Shown piece by piece: positions 4,559 through 63,650 of a stretch of DNA of 64,000 bases. Each line of letters starts with the position of its first letter. The first letter of the stretch is position 1. Where the stretch lies: the sequence record OR757434.1; one strand, written 5' to 3'. Under the pieces are notes generated by a model that searched no databases, was not told the DNA's origin, and was given only the letters and a program-made list of their open reading frames with translations. A program made the translations under genes and the position numbers. Source of the DNA: Escherichia phage vB-EcoP-XT18.

Positions 4559-5049
4559 TTCCAAAGGAATTGGAAGGGAAGATTGATGTAACAGAGGATG
4601 GTAGAGTATTTACTATAAAAAGTGGAAGGTTTTTAACCCTCCACACTAATGGTGCCTATTACAGAGTTACTATTTACTTTCCTGAAGGATTAAAGAATTT
4701 CTATGTCCACAGGCTGGTTGCTAGTAAGTACATACCGAACCCTGATAATCTTCCATGTGTCAACCATAAGGATGGCAATAAACTTAACAATCATAAAGAT
4801 AATCTTGAATGGTGTACCCACCGAGAAAACTCTCAACATGCATCATCATTAGGTCTGATGGTACAGAGGTTTGGAGAAGACAATCCGCAGTCTAAACTTA
4901 CTCTAGAAGATGTAGAGTACTGTAGGAGAGTTTATATCCCTCGAGATAAAGAGTTTGGAGGCTCTGCCCTTGCAAGACGTTTTGGTGTCTCTCAGCAAGT
5001 GATATCAAAAGTTCTACTTAATCAAACTTGGAGGGAATATAATGCATAA
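4555..5049 (+). CDS. HNH homing endonuclease with C-terminal HTH
   Basis: VNHKDGNKLNNHKDNLEWCTHRENSQH; paralog of 41312-41824. Confidence 0.8.
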   Translation: MIPKELEGKIDVTEDGRVFTIKSGRFLTLHTNGAYYRVTIYFPEGLKNFYVHRLVASKYIPNPDNLPCVNHKDGNKLNNHKDNLEWCTHRENSQHASSLGLMVQRFGEDNPQSKLTLEDVEYCRRVYIPRDKEFGGSALARRFGVSQQVISKVLLNQTWREYNA

Positions 5050-9671: not shown

Positions 9672-9680
9672 TAATGTATA
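9672..9680 (+). promoter_or_regulatory. TAATGTATA, putative phage-sigma-dependent promoter
   Basis: motif about 35 nt upstream of the 9717 ATG; same 9-mer recurs upstream of other genes on both strands. Confidence 0.45.
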
Positions 9681-14266: not shown

Positions 14267-14483
14267 AATGGAATACATTGATAAATACTCAAGTGAAGAT
14301 TCAAAAGACGCTGAAGTTTTGTTCGTACTGAAAACAGACTGTTTAGAACATGGACAGCTTATCAACTTTATTGAATTGGCAAAACTTAAAGAAGAAATTG
14401 ATCAACTATACAGTGATGAGCAATCCAGATTACTTTCCTTGTCCCTGCTAGGTGACTTAACCTGTGATGGTTGCATGATATGA
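14232..14483 (+). CDS. hypothetical protein
   Basis: ORF. Confidence 0.3.
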   Translation: MLLTTNKEMWCKMEYIDKYSSEDSKDAEVLFVLKTDCLEHGQLINFIELAKLKEEIDQLYSDEQSRLLSLSLLGDLTCDGCMI

Positions 14484-14953
14484 TAGAAGATCTTCTGGAT
14501 GAGTTCTTTGTTTGTGATTTATCATCTGGGAAAGTGTTCTGGAGAATTCACAACGGAACAAAATGCAGGCGGGGTGACGAGGCAGGAACTTCAAAAAAGG
14601 ATGGAAGAGTGCTTATTCGATTGAAAGGAAGAGCCATTTACAGATACCACATCATTTGGTATTTTGCTAATGGTGTTTTACCTAAAGATCAAATAGATCA
14701 CATTGATCGAAACCCTTCCAACGATTCCATAGGCAACCTTAGAGAAGTTAACAACGAGAATAATTCTTGGAACAAGGGTTTGAACTCTAACAACACATCA
14801 GGAGCTAAGGGCGTATACCTCAATTCAAGAGGGAAGTACATAGCCAACATACATATTAGAGGTAAAACTAAATACCTAGGAACTTTCTCAACCCTAGAGG
14901 AAGCCGTCTCTGTTAGAAACAGAGCGGAGGAAGATCATAAATTAACTACCTAA
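14471..14953 (+). CDS. HNH homing endonuclease
   Basis: IDHIDRNPSNDSIGNLREV HNH core. Confidence 0.75.
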   Translation: MHDMIEDLLDEFFVCDLSSGKVFWRIHNGTKCRRGDEAGTSKKDGRVLIRLKGRAIYRYHIIWYFANGVLPKDQIDHIDRNPSNDSIGNLREVNNENNSWNKGLNSNNTSGAKGVYLNSRGKYIANIHIRGKTKYLGTFSTLEEAVSVRNRAEEDHKLTT

Positions 14954-14962
14954 GAGGTCTTT

Positions 14963-15601
14963 ATGGCTGAAGTTTATTTTGCAGGAGATGGTCACTTAGG
15001 CCATCGAAACATCTGTAGTTTTCGTAAGCAATTTAAAAACATCGAAGAACATGACAAAGCAATTCTGGCTGCTTTTGACCACGTAACCAAACGTGATAAA
15101 GTTTTCTTTACCGGTGATTGGGTGTTTGAAAAGTATGCCCTTGACATCATCGCTGAAGTTAGAGGAGAGAAGCATCTGGTCTTAGGAAATCATGACAGAT
15201 TAGAACTTCTCCCTGATATGATGAAAGTCTTCCGTAGAATCTCTGGTGACTTTAAATATAAAGAGTTTTGGGTAACTCATATTCCTATTCACTCTGATGA
15301 AATGAGAGGAAAGTATAATATCTATGCTCATACTCATAATTCTACTATCAGAGATTGGAGATACTTTTGTACTTCTATGGAACAGATTGATTACAGAGCT
15401 GTGTCTCTGCAAGAAATTCGTAAAGAGTTCGCTGCAAGAAAAAGCATTTTAGAAACTACATTATTTCCAGTGGGAGATAAAAGTAGAGAGCAATTGGATG
15501 AAATCCGAAAGAAGATTCAATTAGAATCTCAAGCAGAATCTAACTTACTTTTTCAGAGAACAGTAGAACAAACTAGTTTTAAAGGTCTTTTAGAATGGTA
15601 G
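14963..15601 (+). CDS. calcineurin-like metallophosphoesterase
   Basis: GDGHLGH, FTGDWV, LGNHD and HTH metal-ligand motifs. Confidence 0.6.
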   Translation: MAEVYFAGDGHLGHRNICSFRKQFKNIEEHDKAILAAFDHVTKRDKVFFTGDWVFEKYALDIIAEVRGEKHLVLGNHDRLELLPDMMKVFRRISGDFKYKEFWVTHIPIHSDEMRGKYNIYAHTHNSTIRDWRYFCTSMEQIDYRAVSLQEIRKEFAARKSILETTLFPVGDKSREQLDEIRKKIQLESQAESNLLFQRTVEQTSFKGLLEW

Positions 15602-26260: not shown

Positions 26261-26269
26261 TATACATTA
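26261..26269 (-). promoter_or_regulatory. TAATGTATA, putative phage-sigma-dependent late promoter
   Basis: minus strand reads CTATAATGTATATAG about 35 nt upstream of the 26222 ATG. Confidence 0.45.
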
Positions 26270-30806: not shown

Positions 30807-31838
30807 TTATAGTCCAGCAAAAACCTTAGCTGCATTCATTACAGGAACTGATAGATTAACTACAGTGTCAGCTCCTAGGTCGTAATTTTGATCCCACTGA
30901 AATAGGTATCTTCCATAGCCAGTTCCTATGCTAGAGCCGCTCATTGTGTGAGATCTCATTTGCTGATATCTCCATCCACTACCTTGGCCTTTTATTGCAC
31001 CTATTCCAGAAGTAAGAGGTATCATAGGATACGACATTCCAGTGTTACCACCACCTGAACCTATAAAAGTATCTACAGTGAAAGGTGTTCTGTTAGTAGA
31101 GAAGACGCACTGAGTGGTGCCCGGAGAGTAGATATTCAAACCCCCGTTATGCTCAGGAACGCCAGCTCCGTTGCAGAATACGGCAATCCTCACAAAGACG
31201 GACCCTCCTTCATTAGTGTTTCCGTTGACATAAGGCCTATTCTGATAGACTCGAATAATCCTGTCATCAGATGTGTAAGATAAACCAACCCCTCCATCAG
31301 ACCAATTAGCAAATACAACAGCATTGGTCATATTGAACCCACCAATATTTGGTATCTGAAGGGAGTTGTTTATGGTCCCCTGCCAAGCCCAAATACATTG
31401 ACCAACAACCCCACTATCCGATATTGAGAAGTAGTCTGCTGTATTGGAAAAGGTAATTCCATAATTCCTATCCGCTCTAGGCCATATTTGGTATACGTTG
31501 AACCCACAGTCGAACAGAGGGTTACTACCTGGGTTCTGATTCAGAGTGACTCTAAAAGAGGAGTTGTTTTCTACGTAGATATCATTCACACAATAAACAT
31601 CAGGAACTAGGTTAGGAGGGACTTCCCATTGCCAGCATAAAGAACCAGTAGGAACAATAACTATCTGACCACTGCCATCCCACCCACTAATAGGGAAAGA
31701 CCTCCCTGCCCCGTTAAAGTTAAAACTTCCTCTTATACTATTCTTGAACTGAGGGAAAGTACTTCCACTGTCTATGAAAAGAGGGGCTGGTGTAGCTGGT
31801 CCCGGCCCTACCGGTTGTGTCCAAATTCCATATGCCAT
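30807..31838 (-). CDS. structural protein
   Basis: ORF in the late operon. Confidence 0.4.
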   Translation of the reverse strand: MAYGIWTQPVGPGPATPAPLFIDSGSTFPQFKNSIRGSFNFNGAGRSFPISGWDGSGQIVIVPTGSLCWQWEVPPNLVPDVYCVNDIYVENNSSFRVTLNQNPGSNPLFDCGFNVYQIWPRADRNYGITFSNTADYFSISDSGVVGQCIWAWQGTINNSLQIPNIGGFNMTNAVVFANWSDGGVGLSYTSDDRIIRVYQNRPYVNGNTNEGGSVFVRIAVFCNGAGVPEHNGGLNIYSPGTTQCVFSTNRTPFTVDTFIGSGGGNTGMSYPMIPLTSGIGAIKGQGSGWRYQQMRSHTMSGSSIGTGYGRYLFQWDQNYDLGADTVVNLSVPVMNAAKVFAGL

Positions 31839-37496: not shown

Positions 37497-39569
37497 TCAT
37501 ATCAATCCATAGATGATGTTGTGAAGAACACACCCCCCAACTGCGCCACCTATGTTGAAATTAATTTCAGCCTTACTGGACCCTGGAGGAACTGAATCAA
37601 TAACAGCATAGAAACTGAACGAGTTGTTACTAGGTATGTAATATCCAATAGACTCAGAAACTGCATTACCTGCTGAATCTAGAAACCTAATAGATGCTAG
37701 TGTAGTGGTTGTATTCTTAGCCCAAAAACCAAACTGAAAGTATCTTCCGGGATGACACTCACTCACTGATTGGGTGAAGTTTGCCGAGCTAGTCGTATCT
37801 GGGACACCAAAAGAGAATGATGTGTTAAACATAGGAGACGAACTCGGAACATCATTGGGTTGAGAAACTGACACTACCCCTGATCCTGTTTGACTAAATG
37901 TCCAGTTAGATGTATTTAAGAATTGCCCGGAACCATTACTAAGACTATTAATGTAAGGGCTTACAATAGATCCAAGATCCCACCTACTTAAGACAAAACC
38001 AGCTCTAGGGTAACATCCGTTAGACACAACTCTCTTACTATCACCGCCGATGAGTTGGCGAGTAGGGAAACCAGTGGCTAGAGTATTGTTGCCATACAGA
38101 GGTAGAGAGCAGTTTGTCAGAGAAACAAAACCATCCCCATTACTTACTATAGGGACAGAACTAAAACCTACAGGGACCAAAATTGTCGAATCTTTTATGC
38201 TCAATCTCGAACTACCATTAACAGAAAAAGAAACAAAAGACTGATCCGGTTGATACTCAATGTTCCCATTAGAAAAAACAACTGTGGCGTTGTCTGTCAT
38301 TATAATGGTTGGGTCAAAATATCCAGACTTTTTCCCAGCAGGAAGTGAACACGTATCAAAGATGAATTGTCCATTCTCAAAAGTAAAAGGTCCTCCGTTA
38401 TCCACGCACCAGCAGTGATTGAACTTTATAACTTCTCCAGAGTTCGCTCTTGATTTAAAAACAACCGTGTCCGTAAAGCTTCTACTTATTGCACATTTGT
38501 CAAAAAGGATCCTATATGAATTATCAAGGAATTCAAGACCAGCTGTTGAGATAAAACCACAATTTTCTATCCGAACTTCCGACACCTCCCCACTATCAGT
38601 CCCTCCAATTACAACCTTTCTGGCACCTAGACCAACAAAGGACACTCCTGATATCTTAGCTGTTGAAGAAATCGAATCTCTAAGCCCATAATCTGTGTTT
38701 GAATTTATAATCTTCAAGAAATATTGACCTGTTGCTCCAGCCCCTTCCTGAAGCTTACAATTATTATAGCCTATCAAGGCTCCTTTAGAAACGTCAATAG
38801 CTATCTCAGATAATACGGATCCAGAAGTTGGAACTATACAATCGTAACCAGAGGAGTTCACTTTGTTGATATAAACAGCAATATCCCCGCTGCCAGTGTA
38901 GCCTGCATCAAACACAGAAGCTTCTCCAGAGAATAGCAACCTCTTCCATTTTACAGAAACTCCACTGAAAACCACCACCCCATCAGCTGTTTCTGAATTG
39001 TCTATTGCTACAAACACACCCCCTCCCATATTAGCCCCTTCGACATAAGATCTTACAAAGACTTTGTCACCTACAGAAGCTCCCTCTAAGGTCTGAAGTT
39101 GTTCAATAGAGGGGAGATCTCCAATAAGATTAAACCCTGTAGGCAGGCCTAGTTCTTGAGAGACCACATTAGATACCTGACCTAATGCCACTGCTTCGTC
39201 ACTCTCAACGGCGTTTGGTATACGTATAGGTTGAGAAAAAGTTACCTTATTTGTCATCGAAGTAATATCTGAGTTAGCCCCACTCTTAGCCGCAACCAGT
39301 GCGAGCCTTGCCGTGTCCGGAGAAGAGGCTCCTGTACCACCTTTCGAAATAGGAACAATATTTTCTACAGAAACATCACCTAATCCTAAATTAGATCTAG
39401 CAATAGTAGTATTAATTGCTCCTGTACCACCTTTCGAAATAGGAACAATATTTTCTACAGAAACATCACCTAATCCTAAATTAGATCTAGCAATAGTAGT
39501 ATTAATTGCTCCTGTACCACCTTTCGAAATAGGAACAGGCTCCTGTACCACCTTTCGAAATAGGAACAA
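37497..39569 (-). CDS. tail fibre, C-terminal portion (gene appears split by a frameshift in the repeat array)
   Basis: begins with identical 30-aa tail-fibre repeats (SKGGTGAINTTIARSNLGLG); overlaps the upstream ORF by 68 nt. Confidence 0.6.
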   Translation of the reverse strand: MFLFRKVVQEPVPISKGGTGAINTTIARSNLGLGDVSVENIVPISKGGTGAINTTIARSNLGLGDVSVENIVPISKGGTGASSPDTARLALVAAKSGANSDITSMTNKVTFSQPIRIPNAVESDEAVALGQVSNVVSQELGLPTGFNLIGDLPSIEQLQTLEGASVGDKVFVRSYVEGANMGGGVFVAIDNSETADGVVVFSGVSVKWKRLLFSGEASVFDAGYTGSGDIAVYINKVNSSGYDCIVPTSGSVLSEIAIDVSKGALIGYNNCKLQEGAGATGQYFLKIINSNTDYGLRDSISSTAKISGVSFVGLGARKVVIGGTDSGEVSEVRIENCGFISTAGLEFLDNSYRILFDKCAISRSFTDTVVFKSRANSGEVIKFNHCWCVDNGGPFTFENGQFIFDTCSLPAGKKSGYFDPTIIMTDNATVVFSNGNIEYQPDQSFVSFSVNGSSRLSIKDSTILVPVGFSSVPIVSNGDGFVSLTNCSLPLYGNNTLATGFPTRQLIGGDSKRVVSNGCYPRAGFVLSRWDLGSIVSPYINSLSNGSGQFLNTSNWTFSQTGSGVVSVSQPNDVPSSSPMFNTSFSFGVPDTTSSANFTQSVSECHPGRYFQFGFWAKNTTTTLASIRFLDSAGNAVSESIGYYIPSNNSFSFYAVIDSVPPGSSKAEINFNIGGAVGGCVLHNIIYGLI

Positions 39570-41925: not shown

Positions 41926-42474
41926 TTAAGCAGCAGGTGTTACACCTGTGAATTCACAAGTGGCTGTTACAAGAGGTTTAGTCTCGTGTGTAGCTGTAAC
42001 AGAGACTGCACCCGTAGCAGTATCAGCAAGAGTCAAAAGACCAGCTGCACTAACAGTGCCCGCTTCCGGAGGAGTTACCTCAAAAGTATAGTCACTTCCG
42101 GTAGAGTTTGTTGCTGTAAACATAGTAGAGAATGCGGTTGTTGATCCACCCACCTTCCCTGAAATCGGACCTCGGCTAACAAGGGTAGGTTCAGGGTCAG
42201 CAATAGCTGAGATCGTAGATGTACCGGATTTACCACCTTTAGTAGCTTTCACTGTAATCGGGGTTTCTTGCGACGCACTCGGTGCAGTATACAGTCCAGA
42301 AACAGAAATAGCCCCACCACCCTCAACGGACCAAACAAATCCAGTTGTTGATGTGGAGCTATCACTCATTTGTGCTGTAGCTGTAAACTGCTGAGTAGCC
42401 CCCGTCGGAAGGCTTGCAACCGACGAAGGACTAACAGTTATGGTATCTACTGTTACGCCGCCACTGCCTTTCCC
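41926..42474 (-). CDS. Ig-like (Big_2) C-terminal extension of the capsid protein, reached by -1 frameshift
   Basis: -1 frame is open from the slippery site to the stop at 41926; the Big_2-like sequence VTVDTITVSPSSVASLPTGATQQFTATA begins upstream of the first Met. Confidence 0.6.
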   Translation of the reverse strand, partial: GKGSGGVTVDTITVSPSSVASLPTGATQQFTATAQMSDSSTSTTGFVWSVEGGGAISVSGLYTAPSASQETPITVKATKGGKSGTSTISAIADPEPTLVSRGPISGKVGGSTTAFSTMFTATNSTGSDYTFEVTPPEAGTVSAAGLLTLADTATGAVSVTATHETKPLVTATCEFTGVTPAA

Positions 42475-43514
42475 GCAGCAGTGAACAGAACACCGGAAGC
42501 ATACGGGTTGCGGTGACGCAGACCAACTTCCATCTCAATCATCCATTTTTCGTAAGAACCATCTTTAGCCAGTTCAGTACGTTTCGGAGCACGCAGAACC
42601 ATCTGAGTCCAGTCAGCGCTACGGAAGAAGTAAACTGCATCGGTAGGCATCCAACGGTTAACGATGATTTTGTAGCTCTGGCCCAGCGGGTCAGTGATGC
42701 TGTTAACTTCGTAAATGAACTGCTTGGTGTTTTCAAAGATACGCTTACGTGAACCCTGAGTATTTTCTTGCAGACCAGCGAAGATCTTAGCATGAGCCGG
42801 GTTAATCATGATGATATCTGCTTCAGAACCAGCGGTGTACAGTTGCAGAGTCATATCAAAGATATCTGCTTCATCAAAGCCGATGTTAGTAGCCGGGTTA
42901 GAAGCGTTCTGTGCAACTTTAACAGTGATTGCACCAGTATCCGGGTCAGCAGGACCATTCTTGGTCTTGTCAACAACGCCGCCAGCCAGACCACCGTGAG
43001 CACACAGGAACTGGAATGCACCAGTCTTACGAGCTGCATGGGTGTCGTTCTTGCCAATCTGATCTGGGTCAGCGGCAGAGTTAGTCAGGTATTGGTCAGC
43101 CAGAACGTCGGTACGAGCCTGACCAGACAGAAGGATTTTCTCGAGGTCACGCTTGATCTCTTTACCTTTCTTCTCCAGCTGGTACATCAGTTCGCGACCA
43201 CGACCGTAGTTAGCGGTGGTGTTAGCAGTGTCAGAAACACGAACAACCTTACGCAGAATCTGAGTAACGTTAGACTTGATAACAGTCGGTTTCATTTCGC
43301 CGTCTTCAGCACGAGAGCCTTCGACGTGTGCGTTATTACCATCAACGCTTGCCAGTGCATCGGTCTGCCAGCTAAAGATAGTCTGGTTGATAGACTCTTT
43401 ACCGGTCATGGATACGAACGGGGTATCCTGAGGGGACAGAACAGAAATCCAGTTAGCAAAAGAAAGTTTTTTACCATTCTGGTCATACGATACAAATAAA
43501 GTTGGATTAGCCAT
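42453..43514 (-). CDS. major capsid protein
   Basis: 353-aa ORF directly after the scaffold gene; gene order and size. Confidence 0.7.
   Translation of the reverse strand: MANPTLFVSYDQNGKKLSFANWISVLSPQDTPFVSMTGKESINQTIFSWQTDALASVDGNNAHVEGSRAEDGEMKPTVIKSNVTQILRKVVRVSDTANTTANYGRGRELMYQLEKKGKEIKRDLEKILLSGQARTDVLADQYLTNSAADPDQIGKNDTHAARKTGAFQFLCAHGGLAGGVVDKTKNGPADPDTGAITVKVAQNASNPATNIGFDEADIFDMTLQLYTAGSEADIIMINPAHAKIFAGLQENTQGSRKRIFENTKQFIYEVNSITDPLGQSYKIIVNRWMPTDAVYFFRSADWTQMVLRAPKRTELAKDGSYEKWMIEMEVGLRHRNPYASGVLFTAAGKAVAA
42468..42474 (-). promoter_or_regulatory. -1 ribosomal frameshift slippery heptamer G_GGA_AAG
   Basis: GGGAAAG lies 5 codons before the capsid stop; same heptamer as the lambda G/GT frameshift site. 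Confidence 0.55.
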
Positions 43515-43555
43515 GTTATGTTAGCTCCTATACTATTAAATAATTAATTTGTCGA

Positions 43556-44641
43556 TTAATCTACGAGGAATTTGAATGCGTCTTCGTGACTAACGCGACC
43601 CTCTGCGAATGCCTTGGCAACCTTAGCGTTGTCTGGCTTATTGGAAGTACGAGACTTTGCAGCATCAGACTTCACAACCTTGCGTGGAGCACCGGGACGT
43701 TTAATCTTAGCCATCACCTGCTGCTTACCTTTATCAAATTGGTATGCTTTATGGAGAGCTAGGAAAATAGACGGACGGTTTTCCTTCAATACTTCTTCTT
43801 CAGTAGCACCTAAGTCAATTGCATATTGCATTAAGTTTTGATATAAGTTTTCATCCCAATTTGGAATCTCACGTTTCAGAATATTAACGCACTCAATACT
43901 TTTGGCTTGGAAAGCTTCCTGTTCTTTAGCTGCTGCTTCCTGCTTAACACGCATCTGAGCCTGTTCAAGCTGGTTACGACGAGCTGTGTACTTCTCTAGG
44001 AAACGTTTGTTTTCAACATATGCTTGAGGATCTTCTACTGCAAGCTTGTCCCAATCAAATCCGTTGTAATCTTCAATTACTCGGTCTGCTTCTAAAGACG
44101 CTAATTCTAATACATCCTTCAAACCTACTACACGTTCCTCAAATGCTTCCATGTGACGCTGAAGAGTTGATTCTCGTTCGGTCATGTCAGCACCAGTAAG
44201 ATAGCCATTGGAGAGTTCTTCAATAGTCATCTCACGTCCATCAGGAAGGGTGATAACGGTTTCGTAGTCTACATCAAAGACCTCACCATCACCGTCAGCA
44301 GAATCATCTTCATACCCTGCATCGCTTGAGTCTTCCTCTTCTGCTTCAGTGTTTTCATCACCTTCATCAGAGTCATCCCCATCTTCTTCGACTTCGCCTT
44401 CCTCATCATGATCTTCCCAACCATCTTCATCTTCGAACTTAAGCTCATCGCTTTCACCGAGAAGGTCGGTATCAAAGTCGAAATTGTCACCGGTATCTTC
44501 CGGGAACTCATCGTCAATGTCCACTTCTGGTTCTTGTTCAGATTCTAATCGACCAAGTTCTTCTTTAAAAGAACCTTTCAGGTCATCCAGTTGGAGGAAA
44601 GATTTAAAATCGTTCGGGTCAATATAATTATCTTGTGGCAT
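43556..44641 (-). CDS. scaffolding protein
   Basis: highly acidic Asp/Glu-rich N-terminal half, helical C-terminus, between portal and capsid. Confidence 0.6.
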   Translation of the reverse strand: MPQDNYIDPNDFKSFLQLDDLKGSFKEELGRLESEQEPEVDIDDEFPEDTGDNFDFDTDLLGESDELKFEDEDGWEDHDEEGEVEEDGDDSDEGDENTEAEEEDSSDAGYEDDSADGDGEVFDVDYETVITLPDGREMTIEELSNGYLTGADMTERESTLQRHMEAFEERVVGLKDVLELASLEADRVIEDYNGFDWDKLAVEDPQAYVENKRFLEKYTARRNQLEQAQMRVKQEAAAKEQEAFQAKSIECVNILKREIPNWDENLYQNLMQYAIDLGATEEEVLKENRPSIFLALHKAYQFDKGKQQVMAKIKRPGAPRKVVKSDAAKSRTSNKPDNAKVAKAFAEGRVSHEDAFKFLVD

Positions 44642-44877
44642 TATGAAACATCTCCTGCACTATTGATAGCAGCTTTTATGACCTCTTTTAAGCTACCCAC
44701 CATTTTATACTTTTGATAACAATCTTCGCGTTTCTTATTCTCATGAGGTTCAGTTTGAACTATCTCTGTCATGAGTCTTTCTTTCAATGCCTCTAATGCT
44801 GCGTCAAGACTGCCGTTAAGATTGAGAGCCGCCAAAGCGGCGGCGTGCTCTTTATTGAATTGATGCCTAATGTTCAT
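44641..44877 (-). CDS. hypothetical protein
   Basis: small ORF between portal and scaffold. Confidence 0.35.
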   Translation of the reverse strand: MNIRHQFNKEHAAALAALNLNGSLDAALEALKERLMTEIVQTEPHENKKREDCYQKYKMVGSLKEVIKAAINSAGDVS

Positions 44878-44886
44878 TCGACGTCC

Positions 44887-47130
44887 TTACTTTTTACTTC
44901 CAAGACGTTTGCCTGGAATCCGTGAATCTTTGAGAGAAGCTTGTTGCTCTTTCTTAGTTACATTTGCTTCTTTCTTCTGGAGTTCCAAAGTTTTATCCTG
45001 AACACGAGATTGCTGAACAATCTTCTCTTGGTCAACCTGATGTTCCATAACCATCTGCAATTCTTTCAGTACAGACTCATACTGACGGACCTGCTGTTGC
45101 ATAAGAGCTAACTTGTGCTTAGCTTGTTCCAGAGTTGCATTGTTATCTTCTTTACGGTTTTCCAGAGTCATAGCATCTGCTGCATTTTCTTGCTTGAACT
45201 GCAACTCTTCCTGACGCAGACTTAATTCATCCGCAGCTTTCTGCTGTTCGAATGTAGTACGTTCACGCTGGTCGAATGCATCAGCAATCATCTTCTGAGA
45301 AGAAGCCTGTACGTTCTCAACCTGTGCTTTAGTCATCTCGAGCTGGAGGATTTCCATCGGAGACGGCTCAGGAGGCTGATACTGTTCCAGAGGCAGTAGG
45401 TATTTGTGAGTGTCTTTAATACCCATCAACTCAAAGATCTGTGCAGTCATGTAACGGTCTTGCTCCAAACCGAAGAGAGGTGCTAACTGTGCATCTGCTG
45501 CAATCAGCTGCTTCAAGCTAATCAGTTTCTGTGCACGTTCTGCTTTTTCATTAGGAGAGATAGCTACAACAACTTGAAGATTGTGACGAGCTGGTAATTG
45601 TTTCGGATTTACCTGAACCATACCACGAGGGGTTTGTACCTCAATAGGAACTTCACCATTTTCTCTGATAAGGCTATAAATACCACGCATCAATTCAACC
45701 ATACCATTGTGAGCAATGTTACGACATACCATACGGAGACGGTTCTGTGCAGCATTCATCATCAAGCCTACGGTTGCATAAGCGTTATCGTTCTTAAACA
45801 CATCAGGGTTGATACCCATGCCAAGTTTAGTTACACCAGTACGTGTCTCTTTAAGCTCCTCAGACATACCTAGGAGGCCATCAATACCTTGAGGTAGGTT
45901 ATGGTATGGGAACAGGTCGATAGCGTCCTGACGTTCCATTTCAACCACTCCACCGGGACGGTTATCAAGCAGAGAGCGACGATCGTATGCACCAACAAGA
46001 GCTTTGTATCGACCATAGTTAGCATTGTTGACGTTATCAATATAACCACGAACTAACGCGGTACGTAAATCCTGAATATCTTTCGTAATGTCATAGACTG
46101 ACTGACCATAGAAGGAACCCGGAATCGGATACGGACAGAAGGTTACAAACGGAATGTGAGTTACTTCTTCAGTGTGAAGGATATGCTCACCAGCTTGAAT
46201 AACCTGATAGAGTTTAGATTCTTTATTCTTATCTAGAACACCAGTACGGATGTAGTGCTCATAAACCCAAACCATAGTAGCGATATCTTCAGTATCTGTG
46301 CCAATGTCAGCATCAATGTCCTGACGCCAGTCAGTACGAGACCAAGCAACTGTAGATTGAGTGGTATCCATCGTGTCTGTCCAGTCATTAAATGCTTCAA
46401 TCTCATCTTTAGGGAAGCCCATAGCAACCAGATCTTCTTTAGAACGACGTACACGATGACAGAAATATTGTGCATCTGCAAAAGAGGTAGCATGTTCATC
46501 AACAAAGATTTGCTCTGAAGGAACATATTCAACTTTCACACGTTTAACAGTTTGTTCATAAGTAACTTTAACATCTACTGTACCGTCTTCATTTTCTTCA
46601 GTGAAGATTTCCAGATTCTTGAGTCCACCAGCTTCTAATCCCTGAACATATGCAGCCAACGCTTCCGGTGGTACACCTTCAGCTTCTTCAGTTTGAGTAG
46701 AAGTGTGCTCATCCCAATAATACTTGATAAAAGAGTTACGAGTAACTAGACATTCTTGTGCAGCAGAGGAGATAATATTGTATCCCGGATTGTCACGCAG
46801 AAGAATTTGGTTAACTAGTTTAGTTGCTACATCAGCAGCATCAGAGTCCTGTTGGTTATCAGCTACAAAAGTAACTGCTTCATCACCAGAACAGAATACG
46901 TTAATAATATCTTGCAATGTACCGTTAACGGATTCCCAAACAGTACGATCTACCCAACTAGAGCTGCCAGCAGTTACTGGTGCAGGTAAGTTACCATAGA
47001 AATATTCCCAAGCTTCACGAGCATAGCCCTTAACAGCCATGTCAACGTAACCTTGAGCGTAATTAAAACGACGTTGAAGGTCAACACGTAACTCGTCCAA
47101 CACCTCTTCACTATATTTTTGCTTAGCCAT
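44887..47130 (-). CDS. portal protein
   Basis: 747-aa ORF after the terminase; long C-terminal coiled coil as in the P22 portal barrel. Confidence 0.7.
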   Translation of the reverse strand: MAKQKYSEEVLDELRVDLQRRFNYAQGYVDMAVKGYAREAWEYFYGNLPAPVTAGSSSWVDRTVWESVNGTLQDIINVFCSGDEAVTFVADNQQDSDAADVATKLVNQILLRDNPGYNIISSAAQECLVTRNSFIKYYWDEHTSTQTEEAEGVPPEALAAYVQGLEAGGLKNLEIFTEENEDGTVDVKVTYEQTVKRVKVEYVPSEQIFVDEHATSFADAQYFCHRVRRSKEDLVAMGFPKDEIEAFNDWTDTMDTTQSTVAWSRTDWRQDIDADIGTDTEDIATMVWVYEHYIRTGVLDKNKESKLYQVIQAGEHILHTEEVTHIPFVTFCPYPIPGSFYGQSVYDITKDIQDLRTALVRGYIDNVNNANYGRYKALVGAYDRRSLLDNRPGGVVEMERQDAIDLFPYHNLPQGIDGLLGMSEELKETRTGVTKLGMGINPDVFKNDNAYATVGLMMNAAQNRLRMVCRNIAHNGMVELMRGIYSLIRENGEVPIEVQTPRGMVQVNPKQLPARHNLQVVVAISPNEKAERAQKLISLKQLIAADAQLAPLFGLEQDRYMTAQIFELMGIKDTHKYLLPLEQYQPPEPSPMEILQLEMTKAQVENVQASSQKMIADAFDQRERTTFEQQKAADELSLRQEELQFKQENAADAMTLENRKEDNNATLEQAKHKLALMQQQVRQYESVLKELQMVMEHQVDQEKIVQQSRVQDKTLELQKKEANVTKKEQQASLKDSRIPGKRLGSKK

Positions 47131-49533: not shown

Positions 49534-49555
49534 TTTATACTCCTTCTACATTATC

Positions 49556-54273: not shown

Positions 54274-54301
54274 TTGACAACTGGAAAGCCTAACCTATAA
54301 T
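54274..54301 (+). promoter_or_regulatory. strong sigma70-type early promoter (TTGACA-16-TATAAT)
   Basis: consensus -35 at 54274-54279 and -10 at 54296-54301; A/T-rich upstream region. Confidence 0.7.
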
Positions 54302-54726: not shown

Positions 54727-54755
54727 TTGACAGCAAAAACATCATGGTCCATAAT
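54727..54755 (+). promoter_or_regulatory. strong sigma70-type early promoter (TTGACA-17-CATAAT)
   Basis: -35 at 54727-54732 and -10 at 54750-54755; A-rich upstream region. Confidence 0.65.
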
Positions 54756-55530: not shown

Positions 55531-55578
55531 GATAAGGGGGCGGCAAGGTTAACTCCTGACAAGACCGCCCCCCTTATC
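55531..55578 (+). other. long GC-rich hairpin (13-14 bp stem, 21-nt loop) in the early leader, possible RNA processing site
   Basis: GATAAGGGGGCGG ... CCGCCCCCCTTATC inverted repeat. Confidence 0.4.
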
Positions 55579-55679
55579 AATAATTACTTAACAATGAGTG
55601 ATTATCGATAAGTCAATGGCGACTTAAAAAGCTCATAGAGAGCGGGGCATAGTGCCCTTACAATTGAAAGGTGAATATC

Positions 55680-56601: not shown

Positions 56602-56636
56602 AAGGCGCTATCTTAACGGGTAGCGCCTTTTCTTTT
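56602..56636 (+). terminator. rho-independent terminator
   Basis: 9-bp stem AAGGCGCUA/UAGCGCCUU then UUCUUUUAU. Confidence 0.6.
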
Positions 56637-58014: not shown

Positions 58015-58042
58015 GCCCCGGCTACGGCTGGGGCTTTTTTAT
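58015..58042 (+). terminator. strong rho-independent terminator
   Basis: 8-bp stem GCCCCGGC/GCUGGGGC then UUUUUUA. Confidence 0.7.
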
Positions 58043-59664: not shown

Positions 59665-60171
59665 CACCGACTTATAGCCCTTGTGTTTACCAGAGGGCTA
59701 TGTGAGGGTGTTCCTCATTAACTTATTAATTCAGGCATATGCCACACCGCTAGGGAGAGCTTGCTCAAACATCCGGTGCTAGACTAAAACCTGTTAATTT
59801 TCGAAAGACTTTCCGGTATGTAGGGGTACGTATTGGTTTGGGATTCAGGAGACTTCCTAGGGGTAGGGAGTCTTCACCAGTTGGAATAAGAGATAGCTCT
59901 AGAACCTGAACTCTTAGGCAGAGAAGGTCGGCAATGAGTACGCGGTCAGGATTAGTCTACTGACTAGGGCTATCCCTTATATCAACTGGCAATAATGCCT
60001 CCACTAACAAAGAGAGATAGGTATGAAAGTATCAACCAAACGTATGAACCGCCCTGAGCGTATGGATGCAGTAGCTAACGGTGCTCTGAAACTGGAAGGC
60101 TTCTGGGTTCATGCAATGTCGGCTATTCGTAACAAGCAAGGTAATTGGACATATAACAGTTAATAAATAAA

Positions 60172-60200
60172 AGGCTGCCTTCGGGCGGCCTTTGTTGTTT
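60172..60200 (+). terminator. rho-independent terminator
   Basis: AGGCUGCC-UUCG-GGCGGCCU then UUGUUGUUUU. Confidence 0.65.
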
Positions 60201-60419: not shown

Positions 60420-60643
60420 TGATTATCGTCCACTCTGAACCTAAAGATAATACTTTTGGTAGTCTACGTAATGGTGATGTATTCTCTCTAGAAATAGACG
60501 GGGATACAAAACCTCCTTTATACATGAAGGTTATGCACAGACATGCTATCTGTATAAAGAATCCTGAAACAAGATTCACCTTTGATAGAACTTGCCCTGT
60601 CAAATACTATCAAGCTACCCTAAATGTTAGGAGAGTAGGATGA
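60419..60643 (+). CDS. small early protein, paralog family B
   Basis: SLRNGDVFSLE. Confidence 0.45.
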   Translation: MIIVHSEPKDNTFGSLRNGDVFSLEIDGDTKPPLYMKVMHRHAICIKNPETRFTFDRTCPVKYYQATLNVRRVG

Positions 60644-60891
60644 AAAACTTCCAAGCTGCACCAATAACTAAAGCGATCGCAGTTAGTGATGTGATGATGA
60701 CTGTTCCTCTGAACACTCGTTACATTGCAATTGACAAGATGGGTTATGTATGGGCTTGGAAGATTAAGCCTAGCTATAACGCATTGTTTGACGAGTTTGT
60801 TTGTACTGGTACTTACAGTCCTACATTCTTGGGTTTATTTGGAGAGTTTGAAGGTCAGTATAAAATCATTACTCTCCCTGCTTGTGTTTGA
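60640..60891 (+). CDS. hypothetical protein
   Basis: ORF. Confidence 0.4.
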   Translation: MKNFQAAPITKAIAVSDVMMTVPLNTRYIAIDKMGYVWAWKIKPSYNALFDEFVCTGTYSPTFLGLFGEFEGQYKIITLPACV

Positions 60892-60896
60892 GGTTC

Positions 60897-61132
60897 TGGT
60901 GAAGACTAAAGAGGTTAAATATTTTGGTGAAGTTATTAAAATAGGTAACTCTATAAGATATTTAGCAACTGATAGCAACGGCGAAGTGTATGGGTTTACT
61001 CATAAGCCAGAAATTCGTGGGTATGCTTGGGCACTCCCTTATGGAACTCCATTCGAGACTGGAGGGGCTGTTTATCTTAATGATAATGGACCTCTGTTTG
61101 GGTGGAAAACATCTCTCGTTGAGGTGGTATAA
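60897..61132 (+). CDS. hypothetical protein
   Basis: likely GTG start within track ORF 60725-61132. Confidence 0.35.
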
Positions 61133-61307
61133 TTATGTTCAAGTGGTTTAAATATCTCTTCCATCTCCATGAGTGGGAGACAATCAAAGCGGTTAGTTTA
61201 AATACATACAATGAGTTTGGTAAACTGGAAAGTACCGGAACTCGTTACATACTTCGATGTAAAACATGTGGTCATATCACTAAGCGGGATATGATCTAAG
61301 AGGTGTT

Positions 61308-61517
61308 ATGTTCTTTCGTAAGAAAAAGCCCGAAGATTCTGGATGTAAACATGAGTGGGTGATCACTGAAAACTTACATATCACTCACGCTAAAGACACT
61401 CCAGTTGAAGCGAAAGAGTCTCGTGTATCTCGTGTCTGTAAACGCTGTTTGAAAATAGAACAGCATAAAGTCCCCGGTCATATAGGTCATGATGTGGCCT
61501 TGCGTATCTTCAGTTAA
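61308..61517 (+). CDS. hypothetical protein
   Basis: ORF. Confidence 0.4.
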   Translation: MFFRKKKPEDSGCKHEWVITENLHITHAKDTPVEAKESRVSRVCKRCLKIEQHKVPGHIGHDVALRIFS

Positions 61518-61535
61518 ACAAATTCAGAGGTTAAT

Positions 61536-61844
61536 GTGAAACAAAAGCATTTTATCATCTCAACCTTACTACTAATGACAACCATTGGTATCATCTCTGT
61601 TAATAGTGCAGAGATTGGGGTTAAGTATCAGAGTGTTCAGCAATGCACTCTTAAAGAGCATAGCTTAACTGGTATCAAAGAATCTCATGGTATGGTAAGA
61701 GATGGGCTTCTGTTTGTAGAAACAACTTCTGGTAATCGTGTCATGGCTACTGATGGCAAAGAAACAAAGTATGCCTACTTCCCTGATACAACAGGCTACT
61801 ACACTTTTGAAGAGAAGGATTGTAAGAAGTCTTTCTCTTTATAA
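61536..61844 (+). CDS. secreted or membrane-anchored protein
   Basis: N-terminal hydrophobic signal-like segment. Confidence 0.45.
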   Translation: MKQKHFIISTLLLMTTIGIISVNSAEIGVKYQSVQQCTLKEHSLTGIKESHGMVRDGLLFVETTSGNRVMATDGKETKYAYFPDTTGYYTFEEKDCKKSFSL

Positions 61845-61853
61845 ATAAATCAA

Positions 61854-61928
61854 GTCCCTATAGTTAAAAGGATATAACAGATTTCTTCTAAAAATCCATT
61901 CTAGGTTCGAGTCCTAGTGGGGACGCCA
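61854..61928 (+). tRNA. tRNA-Arg (anticodon UCU) with encoded CCA
   Basis: hand-folded cloverleaf: 7-bp acceptor stem with one G-U, D arm GTTA/TAAC, anticodon stem GATTT/AAATC with loop CTTCTAA, T arm CTAGG-TTCGAGT-CCTAG, discriminator G. Confidence 0.8.
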
Positions 61929-61948
61929 AATCAAATAGGAGGTGTGTT

Positions 61949-62248
61949 ATGAGTTGGGGTGGTGTAATATCCTTAATCTGTATCTTCCTTGTCTGTGTGG
62001 CCCTTACAGGCTGCGTACAGAGCCGTCCTGATAGATGGTGTGCAGTAGCAGTGGATGGTATTTGTGTATCTCGCTGGCATAAAGGTGAGAAGGTTCCTTC
62101 TGGTGAAATTGATATGCGCTGGAACGGAGCAACCTGCTCTAATGCTAACCCTTCTATCAACGAAGAGAAGTCTACGCCAGACAATGTTGTGATTGATACA
62201 GCGTTGTGGTGTGGTGGCTCTACGACTACAACCGGTAAGGAGTGGTGA
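61949..62248 (+). CDS. lipoprotein, candidate superinfection-exclusion protein
   Basis: signal peptide ending in lipobox LTGC. Confidence 0.45.
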   Translation: MSWGGVISLICIFLVCVALTGCVQSRPDRWCAVAVDGICVSRWHKGEKVPSGEIDMRWNGATCSNANPSINEEKSTPDNVVIDTALWCGGSTTTTGKEW

Positions 62249-62249
62249 T

Positions 62250-62447
62250 ATGAATTACACGTCTACAAAGGTGTTAATTGATTCGATTAATAACACCTCA
62301 GAAGCTGTACAGGAGCGTTTAATACAAGATGTAAGCAATGATATTAAGTTCTTTGTTAAACGCCGCCTGTTAGGTTCTAAGGCTTATTACAGAGCTAAAG
62401 CTGAGTTAACTAAGAGAGTGTTTCTCTTACACGGCTTGGTGTATTAA
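62250..62447 (+). CDS. hypothetical protein
   Basis: ORF (track 62193-62447, first plausible ATG at 62250). Confidence 0.35.
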   Translation: MNYTSTKVLIDSINNTSEAVQERLIQDVSNDIKFFVKRRLLGSKAYYRAKAELTKRVFLLHGLVY

Positions 62448-62456
62448 GGAACTCGT

Positions 62457-62678
62457 ATGAAATTAGATTCTAAACAATCCCTTAAAACTGTTGAACTGTC
62501 CACACTGCCAAACGGAAGTATTTTTGGTCATGATAAACACTTCTGGATTAAAACAGACTACTTGAACGATGGGTATATTACCTGCGTCAACCTTTGGAAT
62601 GGTTCAGTGGATGGCTATCGCCCTAGTGCAAAAGTAGTCCCTCAGCCTGATGCAAAGGCTATAGGTTTAGTTTATTAA
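62457..62678 (+). CDS. small early protein, paralog family B
   Basis: TLPNGSIFGHD. Confidence 0.45.
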   Translation: MKLDSKQSLKTVELSTLPNGSIFGHDKHFWIKTDYLNDGYITCVNLWNGSVDGYRPSAKVVPQPDAKAIGLVY

Positions 62679-63213
62679 GGAGTTTATATGAGCTGTTTTG
62701 GTGGTGGTGAAATAGATGACGATTATGACATGGAATCCAACGGTACATGTCCTGATTGTGGGTGTGAAACATTTGATGGAGTGTCAGTATATCCTGCCTG
62801 TAGTTATTCACCAGTAGTTTGTAAAACATGTGGAGATCAACCTTGTGATCAGTCCTGTTAAGAGGTTTTATGACTGAAGAATTTTTAAAGTGGTTTGGAA
62901 ATACCTTCAAAGAATATCTATTCTCTCCAGAAGACTTTGAAGAGCTGAAAACCTACACTTGGTTGGCTTGGAGAGATAGCCGACGAGAGATGAATAAGTA
63001 ATATCGTGAAGGATTCTTACGAGAGTCCTTTGAGATAGGACTTCAGATCTCCTATCAAACTAACATTCACGTAACTAGCCCATAAGGGCGTTACCCTTTA
63101 ATAACCCAGCCCACTAAGGGGGCGGGAGTTTAGTGCTGGATTTAGCATAACGCTTATTCCTACAAAGGCATCCGATTGTTAGATCTTACATGCAATATTA
63201 ATTAATAGGATAA

Positions 63214-63240
63214 GGGAGGATTCGTCCCCTCCCCCTATTT
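63214..63240 (+). terminator. weak hairpin terminator
   Basis: GGGAGG ... CCUCCC then CUAUUUAU. Confidence 0.3.
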
Positions 63241-63650
63241 ATAAATTATCAGGAGGGTGCATTAGCTGATTAGCTGTAGAAGGGAGGCTGATATCTACAG
63301 CGTGGCCCAGAGTTAGTGTACTCTCCTGATGAGTAGATACCTCATCACGGTAAGCTGTGGAATAATCTTTACAGAAGTTACTTAAAGTAGCCTGTACGGC
63401 CCTCAGCAAAGAGTCCGGACGATATCTGAGTGACTTTAAAAACAGATGGAGCCAGGTGGAATCCCTGGCAATCAATTACAGGTATAGCTTATGAGGCTAA
63501 TTAATGCAGAGCCTATGGTAAAGCAGTCGCCCGTGGTCAAATGACCGTATGCCCATTGGGTGCATCCCTTTGGTGATGGCTAGGGAGTCCGAGCGTAGGT
63601 CCGAACCCTACACCTGTAACCAAATCAAACAATATCTAATTGGAGGATGT

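Follow-up and report, generated by a model that had tools for sequence, protein, structure and literature searches.

The window, i.e., the whole 64,000-nucleotide stretch of DNA analyzed here, contains a single tRNA gene detectable with ARAGORN, a 75-nt gene for tRNA-Arg with the anticodon tct and an encoded CCA, located at 61854-61928 on the + strand. When the window was searched with all 4,227 Rfam families at gathering thresholds, the only match was that of RF00005 to 61854-61925; this match covered model positions 1-71 of 71 and scored 57.0 bits compared to a gathering score of 29 (E = 1.1e-9). A custom covariance model assigned the gene a score of 80.3 bits, and the covariation described below supports the same gene call. 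The original prediction, made from the sequence alone, had proposed a canonical tRNA-Arg(UCU) with an encoded CCA at these coordinates; ARAGORN returned exactly this interval, and both predictors accept the fold.

The gene product fits a 7/4/5/5-bp cloverleaf without a non-standard pair among its 21 stem pairs, one of which is G-U. The acceptor stem (GUCCCUA/UGGGGAC) comprises seven pairs, among them U6-G67, and is followed by UA at positions 8-9, a D arm with the stem GUUA/UAAC and the loop AAAGGAUA, an A at position 26, an anticodon arm with the stem GAUUU/AAAUC and the loop CUUCUAA, a 4-nt variable loop (CAUU), and a T arm with the stem CUAGG/CCUAG and the loop UUCGAGU. The anticodon TCT (tRNA positions 34-36), as read from the sequence and by ARAGORN, maps to 61887-61889 (+) inside the loop CTTCTAA at 61885-61891, and the discriminator G73 at 61925 immediately precedes the encoded CCA 3' end at 61926-61928 (+). 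The conserved nucleotides U8, A14, G18, G19, A21, U33, G53, U54, U55, C56, A58, and C61 are all present. Energy minimization of the bare, unmodified RNA (−18.5 kcal/mol; z = −2.0) reproduced two arms, the acceptor and T arms, but no cloverleaf, which fits with an A-U-rich anticodon stem consisting of four A-U pairs and one G-C pair. In E. coli, the identity elements for ArgRS are A20, C35, U36, and a purine at position 73, of which C35 and U36 are the major ones. Based on our own assignment of the numbering, A20, C35, U36, and G73 are present in the window tRNA, and an A directly follows G18-G19 in the D loop (compare GGAUA in argU).

To place the gene in its genomic context, we used the region 60500-63500 in a megablast search against GenBank phages and obtained 172 records, of which the best was Escherichia phage vB-EcoP-XT73 with 98.2% identity over 96% of the query. 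The matched records are classified as Gordonclarkvirinae, and Kuravirus comprises the phiEco32-like prolate podoviruses; an N4-like/Gamaleyavirus affiliation was ruled out by this record taxonomy (Gordonclarkvirinae; Kuravirus) together with the phiEco32 locus. The genome layout fits that of the phiEco32-like group with a replication block on the + strand (1-21.5 kb), a structural block for the major head, scaffold, portal, and tail-fibre proteins on the − strand (21.8-50.3 kb), and a block of small early genes on the + strand (50.4-64 kb). A 75-nt tRNA sequence that does not differ from that of the window is present in NJ01, KBNP1711, XT73, and pEC-N1203-2Af.1 and carries a tRNA-Arg label in the pEC-N1203-2Af.1 record. 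One tRNA apiece, with the anticodon TCT, has been tabulated for 36 Kuravirus-like phages, including NJ01 and KBNP1711 (PMC9965538). The window shares its slot, its anticodon, and the single-tRNA genome with the Kuravirus-like phages phiEco32, SU10, YF01, NJ01, and KBNP1711. Because the same sequence is annotated in GenBank and a tRNA-Arg(TCT) per phage has been published (PMC9965538), the gene described here is already known and represents the rediscovery of a published, annotated feature.

The tRNA gene is closely flanked by ORFs on both sides. The upstream ORF at 61536-61844 (+) encodes 102 amino acids with a signal-like hydrophobic N-terminus, matches phrog_23590 (unknown function; E = 2.5e-62) but none of the Pfam families, and ends with a stop codon 9 nt from the tRNA start; this ORF is also located ahead of the 172-1-type tRNA in 172-1 and PE006. 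On the downstream side, the Shine-Dalgarno sequence AGGAGG is located at 61937-61942 (+), 8 nt past the CCA, and is followed by an ORF of 99 amino acids for a phage lipoprotein at 61949-62248 (+) (Pfam PF24052, Phage_lipoprotein; 114 bits), which forms the conserved downstream edge of the slot. The distance from the CCA to the lipoprotein ATG is 20 nt in the window and 19-20 nt in 12 of 16 loci. Because the gaps to the neighboring genes are only 9 and 8 nt and all three genes are on the + strand, maturation of the tRNA would require its excision from a polycistronic RNA.

A promoter scan identified three near-consensus sigma-70 promoter-like sites on the + strand at 54274-54301 (12/12 matches), 54727-54755 (11/12 matches), and 55556-55584 (10/12 matches). 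The early promoters of SU10 (Table S2 in PMC4281155) are located at the same relative distance of ~7 kb, and the sites in the window correspond to them in sequence too; moreover, the stretch corresponding to the tRNA region has been assigned to the early genes in SU10 (PMC4281155). By homology to the SU10 and phiEco32 maps, the tRNA gene is predicted to belong to the early transcription region, a temporal class that is based on the homology-derived SU10 map and the promoter table. The three sigma-70-like sites are likely candidates for the early promoters of the transcription unit of the tRNA and may drive its expression across three intervening terminator-like hairpins at 56602-56629, 58015-58034, and 60170-60193. 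Perfect copies of the phage sigma-factor motif TAATGTATA were found at 26261 and 41858 on the − strand, where late promoters are expected from the SU10/phiEco32 maps, and at 9672 and 15868 on the + strand, where middle promoters are expected; a copy with one mismatch is located at 49545 on the − strand. This motif scan of the window returned no copy near the tRNA gene.

To assess the demand for a tRNA of this specificity, we compared the codon usage in 92 non-overlapping phage ORFs on the expected coding strands with that in 63 annotated genes in a 50-kb sample of MG1655. AGA and AGG were used at 11.9 and 4.8 per 1,000 codons, respectively, in the phage and at 2.3 and 1.3 per 1,000 codons in E. 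coli, i.e., in total 16.6 versus 3.6 per 1,000 codons. AGR codons thus make up 33% of all Arg codons in the phage and 5.6% in the E. coli sample, in agreement with the original statement that AGA and AGG are rare in E. coli. The 292 AGR codons of the phage are spread over 64 of the 92 ORFs, and their density is 21.7 per 1,000 codons in the middle/replication block (+ strand), 14.2 in the early small-ORF block, and 13.8 in the late block; the difference between the middle and late blocks is significant (p = 3e-4). Within the late block, the genes for the major head, scaffold, and portal proteins have 0, 0, and 1 AGR codon, respectively, corresponding to 1 of 71 Arg codons, compared to 120 of 322 Arg codons in the other late genes (Fisher p = 1.5e-11), and AGR codons account for 51-92% of the Arg codons in the tail and tail-fibre genes. 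The ORFs at 14480-15601, 30807-31838, and 37497-39257 are examples of genes for AGR-rich proteins. The suggestion that the tRNA supports late-gene translation is, therefore, only partly borne out. The tail and tail-fibre genes are AGR rich; however, the tRNA gene is located among the early genes, the highest AGR density is that of the middle block, and the head genes are nearly free of AGR codons.

Base composition predicts that AGR codons should constitute 45% of Arg codons in the phage (observed, 33%) and 34% in E. coli. Because the latter value compares to an observed 5.6%, the host strongly avoids AGR codons. The phage has no preference for AGR codons but merely fails to avoid them, and its avoidance is confined to the most abundant proteins. 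Because the phage AGR share is below that expected from composition, a benefit from the tRNA is plausible but unquantified. Strong avoidance in the host alongside restricted avoidance in the phage is what a phage tRNA that lowers but does not remove the cost of AGR codons would be expected to produce. The phage also makes frequent use of further codons that are rare in E. coli (ATA, 9.1; CTA, 8.5; and GGA, 17.5 per 1,000 codons), and ARAGORN and Rfam detected no phage tRNAs for ATA, CTA, or GGA in the 64-kb window. Frequent E. coli-rare codons without a matching phage tRNA have also been pointed out previously (PMC9965538). Similarly, the codon-usage argument for AGA has already been made for the tRNA of Kuravirus-like phages, based on an AGA share of Arg codons of 20.2% in phage YF01 versus 3.6% in E. 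coli K-12, i.e., a 5.6-fold difference (PMC9965538).

Approximately 170 records share the region around the tRNA gene, but a blast search with the 75-nt window tRNA returned only seven kuravirus records. We sampled 17 kuravirus loci; in all but two of them, ARAGORN identified a tRNA-Arg(tct) that occupies the same slot directly ahead of the lipoprotein gene. The 17 loci contain nine tRNA sequences, which form ~7 deep types with 56-90% mutual identity, represented by (i) the window, NJ01, KBNP1711, and XT73; (ii) Ptacy1532; (iii) 172-1 and a metagenomic contig; (iv) phiEco32; (v) Bas90, MN03, and WFI101126; (vi) EcoN5, MN05, and PAS59; and (vii) O18-011. The window has a clean copy of the rarest and most AT-rich type, and the tRNA bodies of phiEco32, SU10/Bas90, EcoN5, 172-1, and O18-011 are only 56-68% identical to it, a divergence for which we saw no mention in the papers examined. 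An 81-nt variant in XT32, at the end of a partial record, was not accepted as a real allele: it includes an N as well as a local duplication and is probably an assembly artefact. Every sampled kuravirus with an intact tRNA gene has kept the anticodon UCU in this slot, as would be expected under selection for the function; A20, C35, and U36 are kept in all kuravirus alleles in our alignments, and the anticodon loop CUUCUAA is the same as that of argU in eight of the nine alleles. The variable loop is 4 or 5 nt long depending on the allele, and the 19:56 elbow pair is altered in two alleles, the near-universal G19-C56 being replaced by U19-A56 or C19-G56 in the type represented by 172-1 and the metagenomic contig.

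We analyzed covariation in a covariance-model alignment of ten sequences comprising the distinct kuravirus alleles and host argU; an alignment generated with MAFFT was set aside because the variable-loop gap was misplaced into the T stem. Cloverleaf pairing was present in 99.5% of the cells compared to 34-51% in slid controls. Compensatory double changes were observed at 17 of the 21 pairs, including four of the five pairs of the anticodon stem, and none of 500 shuffles had as many. Because the alleles are paired in 99.5% of the cells and covary at 17 of 21 pairs, they all appear to be maintained as working tRNAs.

Between the window and 172-1, the slot flanks are ~99% identical, with a difference at 1 of 86 upstream positions and identity from the RBS onward, while the tRNAs are 65% identical, suggesting that the exchange of the tRNA is base-precise. 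NJ01 and KBNP1711 have the same tRNA as the window, while the downstream 900 nt are only 67-69% identical. Thus, the history of the alleles and that of the flanks appear to be uncoupled. In PE006, the tRNA gene is deleted except for 23 nt, and this stub is fused directly to the RBS; because PE006 was nonetheless isolated as a viable phage, infection of at least some hosts does not require the gene.

In E. coli, argU and argW are minor tRNA species cognate to AGA/AGG. The window tRNA and argU have the same anticodon, the same 7-nt loop CUUCUAA, A20/C35/U36/G73, and an encoded CCA. However, their global identity is 59%, and all four stem sequences differ, including those of the acceptor and anticodon stems; the variable loop differs as well (5 nt in argU versus 4 nt), as do total length (77 versus 75 nt) and G+C content (61% versus 40%). 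In a blastn search of 5,426 E. coli genomes (E ≤ 0.01), we found no match to the window tRNA. These data support that the window tRNA is not derived from host argU. For comparison, the EcoN5 and phiEco32 alleles are 79-83% identical to argU.

With a G+C content of 40%, the window tRNA type combines a variable loop of 4 nt with the D arm GUUAAANGGAUAUAAC. The pattern of this D arm and the anticodon loop is present in >120 IMG/VR viral contigs and in >120 bacterial genomes, mostly of Saccharibacteria and Paceibacterota. These environmental-phage/Patescibacteria (CPR)-type tRNA-Arg(UCU) sequences have the D arm, the anticodon loop, and the 4-nt variable loop in common with the window tRNA, and the nearest non-kuravirus sequences are 78-81% identical to it; 44 of 232 extracted sequences of this type encode the CCA. 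Because the type is common in this phage/environmental tRNA pool and was not found in the E. coli genomes, the window allele probably came from the former and not from the host. No particular bacterial donor was assigned, the pattern being too widespread and the best non-kuravirus identity being 81%.

In several relatives, the slot contains traces of inserted cassettes. In Ptacy1532, an insert that comprises an ORF annotated as an HNH endonuclease and a new tRNA-Arg(UCU) separates the 5' half (L016:969-994) of a Bas90-type tRNA from its 3' half (L016:1445-1490). Among the kuravirus tRNAs, this new one is most closely related to the window allele, with 74% identity and the same D arm. In 1-6bf, an HNH_3-like ORF and an odd tRNA-like element come after a 19-nt remnant of an EcoN5-type tRNA, and in O18-011, an HNH_3-like ORF overlaps the start of a distinct tRNA allele. 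The two HNH_3-like ORFs gave Pfam HNH_3 scores of 24.7 and 24.2 bits, just under the curated cut-off of 24.8, and the HNH-annotated ORF of Ptacy1532 had no Pfam match. In the window, Pfam detected no HNH or GIY-YIG match in the ORFs neighboring the tRNA gene, and searches with ARAGORN, Rfam, and the covariance model detected no second tRNA or tRNA remnant. Based on these sequence comparisons, turnover in the slot is best explained by recombination together with, in some relatives, insertion of a putative HNH homing-endonuclease gene and a new tRNA. A precedent is phage T4, in which SegB reportedly drives the preferential inheritance of the tRNA region (PMC2330249). The T4 region is a locus under endonuclease-driven inheritance, and the ORFs annotated or scoring as HNH beside or inside the slot of the kuravirus relatives may act likewise. 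Compared to the tRNA loci of T4, T5, and T6, the window is different in that it has no endonuclease gene and a single tRNA instead of a cluster.

The observed gene, fold, anticodon, allele covariation, and codon statistics lead us to favor, as the probable explanation, that 61854-61928 encodes a functional elongator tRNA-Arg(UCU) of a virulent Kuravirus that adds AGR decoding capacity; its transcription class, processing, charging, modification, and benefit are what we infer from these observations. The gene would be transcribed on the + strand together with the other small, closely spaced genes of the early block, and the polymerase is probably the sigma-70 RNA polymerase of the host. From the resulting polycistronic RNA, the tRNA would be released by host RNase P (5' end) and by RNase E plus exonucleases (3' end). 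Addition of CCA would be unneeded because it is encoded, and charging by host ArgRS is expected because A20, C35, U36, and G73 are present. The charged tRNA would read AGA and, with lower efficiency, AGG. Because AGR codons are ~5 times more common in the phage and argU and argW are minor species, the phage tRNA would raise AGR decoding. The beneficiaries would be the replication, tail, and accessory genes with their many AGR codons; such codons are avoided in the most abundant head proteins, which would not depend on the tRNA. At least seven tRNA-Arg(UCU) cassettes would be interchangeable in this kuravirus slot, among them the AT-rich allele of the window. As a tentative extension, which we regard as possible but not probable, the slot may be a hypervariable cassette site at which deeply divergent tRNA bodies with one common anticodon are exchanged at base-precise borders, in some cases by homing-endonuclease cassettes that disrupt the resident tRNA and supply a substitute. 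The alleles may be kept in the population by host factors that recognize the tRNA body (immunity, toxins) or by endonucleases that act on the DNA, and the AT-rich, non-enterobacterial window allele may be an "escape" version instead of a neutral variant.

Among the alternatives to a tRNA that adds decoding capacity, an anti-defense tRNA would sustain AGA/AGG decoding when a host immune nuclease, a toxin, or phage-induced shut-off removes host tRNA-Arg(UCU), and the diversity of the tRNA bodies would reflect an arms race with nucleases whose targets are the stems, the variable loop, or the elbow and not the anticodon loop. Phage tRNAs have been shown to rescue infection from PARIS/AriB, which cleaves the anticodon stem at 40/41, and the T5 tRNA-Lys escapes it by two nearby changes (PMC12409363). 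The parts of the kuravirus tRNA that vary among alleles include the anticodon stem with its four doubly changed pairs, the length of the variable loop, and the 19:56 pair, and the window allele, at 59% identity to argU, resembles nothing in the 5,426 E. coli genomes. On the other hand, the loop, identical to that of argU in eight of nine alleles, has none of the mutations that have been proposed as a signature of phage tRNAs evading cleavage. Moreover, a literature search identified no anti-phage nuclease or other defense system that targets tRNA-Arg(UCU), in which this tRNA differs from the anti-defense tRNAs of T5 and T6, although absence from a text search is no proof. The nucleases described in the literature target tRNA-Lys, -Thr, and -Asn (PARIS/AriB), tRNA-Tyr (retron-Eco7 and Septu), or U-rich anticodons (Cas13a), and colicin D, which does cleave tRNA-Arg, is a bacteriocin and not an anti-phage system. 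In the BASEL study, Kuravirus phages were sensitive solely to Fun/Z among the systems it tested. Finally, homing cassettes and recombination are a simpler account of the allele diversity. The original proposal that the phage tRNA replaces cleaved or depleted host tRNA, therefore, has no specific support. Because the anticodon loops are identical, a loop-directed nuclease would not distinguish the phage tRNA from argU; the replacement idea retains some probability because everything outside this loop differs from argU, but we consider an anti-defense role unlikely.

Alternatively, the gene could be a selfish or hitch-hiking element, in which case divergent copies would travel with, or resist, homing endonucleases that cut the resident tRNA gene, and the window allele would be the residue of a cassette after loss of the endonuclease; the phage would merely regain what the insertion had destroyed. 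The split tRNA in Ptacy1532, the remnant in 1-6bf, and the overlap in O18-011, all associated with HNH-like ORFs, as well as the T4 SegB precedent (PMC2330249), are consistent with this scenario. However, there is no endonuclease-like ORF or tRNA remnant near the window gene, the HNH_3 scores are below the cut-off, and the Ptacy1532 ORF has no Pfam match. As a full explanation, this scenario is rather improbable; instead, it complements a decoding function because it explains which allele is present but not why an intact UCU tRNA is retained everywhere.

In a third alternative, the tRNA would serve as RNA-processing punctuation, i.e., as an RNase P/RNase E site that divides the upstream message from that of the lipoprotein gene and thereby determines where the lipoprotein mRNA starts, how stable it is, or how well it is translated. 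The location of the CCA 8 nt from the Shine-Dalgarno sequence and 20 nt from the lipoprotein ATG, as well as the 19-20-nt spacing in 12 of 16 loci regardless of allele, would agree with such a function. Yet, a processing signal needs neither a strict UCU anticodon nor ArgRS identity elements, both of which are retained; the spacing is broken in Bas90, Ptacy1532, O18-011, and PAS59; and in PE006 the tRNA stub is fused straight to the RBS, making this alternative very unlikely. Least credible is a pseudogene or a chance cloverleaf, for which the non-cloverleaf minimum-energy fold, the A-U-rich anticodon stem, and the loss of the gene in one relative (PE006) could be cited, since the Rfam score is 28 bits over the gathering score, all universally conserved tRNA positions are present, pairing is present in 99.5% of the cells and 17 of 21 pairs covary among the alleles, and the tRNA is 100% conserved in five phages despite differing flanks.

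The presence of just one tRNA-Arg(UCU) has been published as a hallmark of phiEco32-like phages, and the gene in the window is, as such, a case of routine annotation. Its practical relevance is slight and concerns the therapeutic use of, or gene expression by, these phages, in which about one-third of the Arg codons are poorly read by E. coli. The part of research interest is solely the turnover of alleles with homing-type cassettes, for which we found no report in the literature examined. Near-identical phages that have tRNA-Arg(UCU) genes as unlike as those of distant bacteria represent a compact natural system. This slot could tell whether homing endonucleases or host immunity that targets tRNAs is the driving force behind phage tRNA diversity, and whether a tRNA can serve as the "immunity" allele of a homing cassette.

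At least seven deeply divergent tRNA-Arg(UCU) genes, sharing 56-90% identity, occupy a single slot immediately upstream of the lipoprotein gene among otherwise near-identical kuraviruses, as seen when the window gene (61854-61928, + strand) was compared with the sampled kuravirus loci L001, L006, L008, L010, L013, L014, L016, and L019, each of which is numbered in its own coordinates. The exchange boundaries are base precise, and the flanks are ~99% identical between kuraviruses. All alleles in the slot keep the cloverleaf, with covariation in 17 of the 21 pairs. The near-universal tertiary G19-C56 elbow pair is replaced by U19-A56 in the tRNA-Arg of 172-1 (L010, 1532-1608) and by C19-G56 in the L006 allele (2405-2481). 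Both are compensated changes of the tertiary pair and could alter recognition by elbow-binding factors.

In Ptacy1532 (L016), a resident tRNA of the Bas90 allele type is cut into a 5′ half (969-994) and a 3′ half (1445-1490) by an insertion that contains an ORF annotated as an HNH endonuclease (980-1255, - strand) and a new, divergent tRNA-Arg(UCU) (1337-1411). This arrangement looks like a homing-type replacement that carries its own functional tRNA copy. In 1-6bf (L018), a 19-nt stub of an EcoN5-type tRNA (1127-1145) is followed by an HNH_3-like ORF (1140-1580) and an 82-nt tRNA-like element (1592-1673). The latter combines a T arm with a CUUCUAA loop and has a terminal stem of 12 bp; it was not called by ARAGORN and scored 24 bits with a custom covariance model. 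Bas90 (L001) has a conserved 124-nt element between its argU-like tRNA and the lipoprotein gene (4745-4868); this element is present in 30 phage records. It terminates with a T arm followed by an acceptor-like strand and CCA, and a UUUCUUA loop may lie within it. Neither ARAGORN nor Rfam called a tRNA in this element, and its covariance-model score was 20.5 bits; it could represent a tRNA-like RNA, either degenerate or unusual.

In PE006 (L011), a 172-1-type tRNA has been reduced to its first 23 nt (877-899), which are joined directly to the lipoprotein RBS. Unless this junction is an assembly error, PE006 is a natural tRNA-less kuravirus. In the XT32 record (L004, 73-153), the tRNA matches that of the window except for an N and a duplication of 6 nt, and it lies where the partial genome sequence ends; a true variant is disfavored here, and the difference is probably a sequencing or assembly artifact.

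Immediately upstream of the slot, kuraviruses differ in the copy number of a small-ORF family, represented in the window by two adjoining + strand ORFs of 54 and 69 aa (61135-61299 and 61308-61517). HEW and C-x2-C motifs are common to both, and the two look like paralogous zinc-ribbon-like proteins. Three good intrinsic-terminator-like hairpins on the + strand of the early block (56602-56629, 58015-58034, and 60170-60193) may split early transcription into smaller units before the tRNA is reached; none appears among the four terminators that Table S2 of PMC4281155 gives for SU10.

With regard to codon usage in the late block, only 1 of 71 Arg codons is AGA or AGG in the genes for the major head, scaffold, and portal proteins (42453-47130, - strand), whereas these two codons make up 51-92% of Arg codons in the adjoining tail genes. 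This contrast is a strong expression-linked codon split inside one late transcription block.
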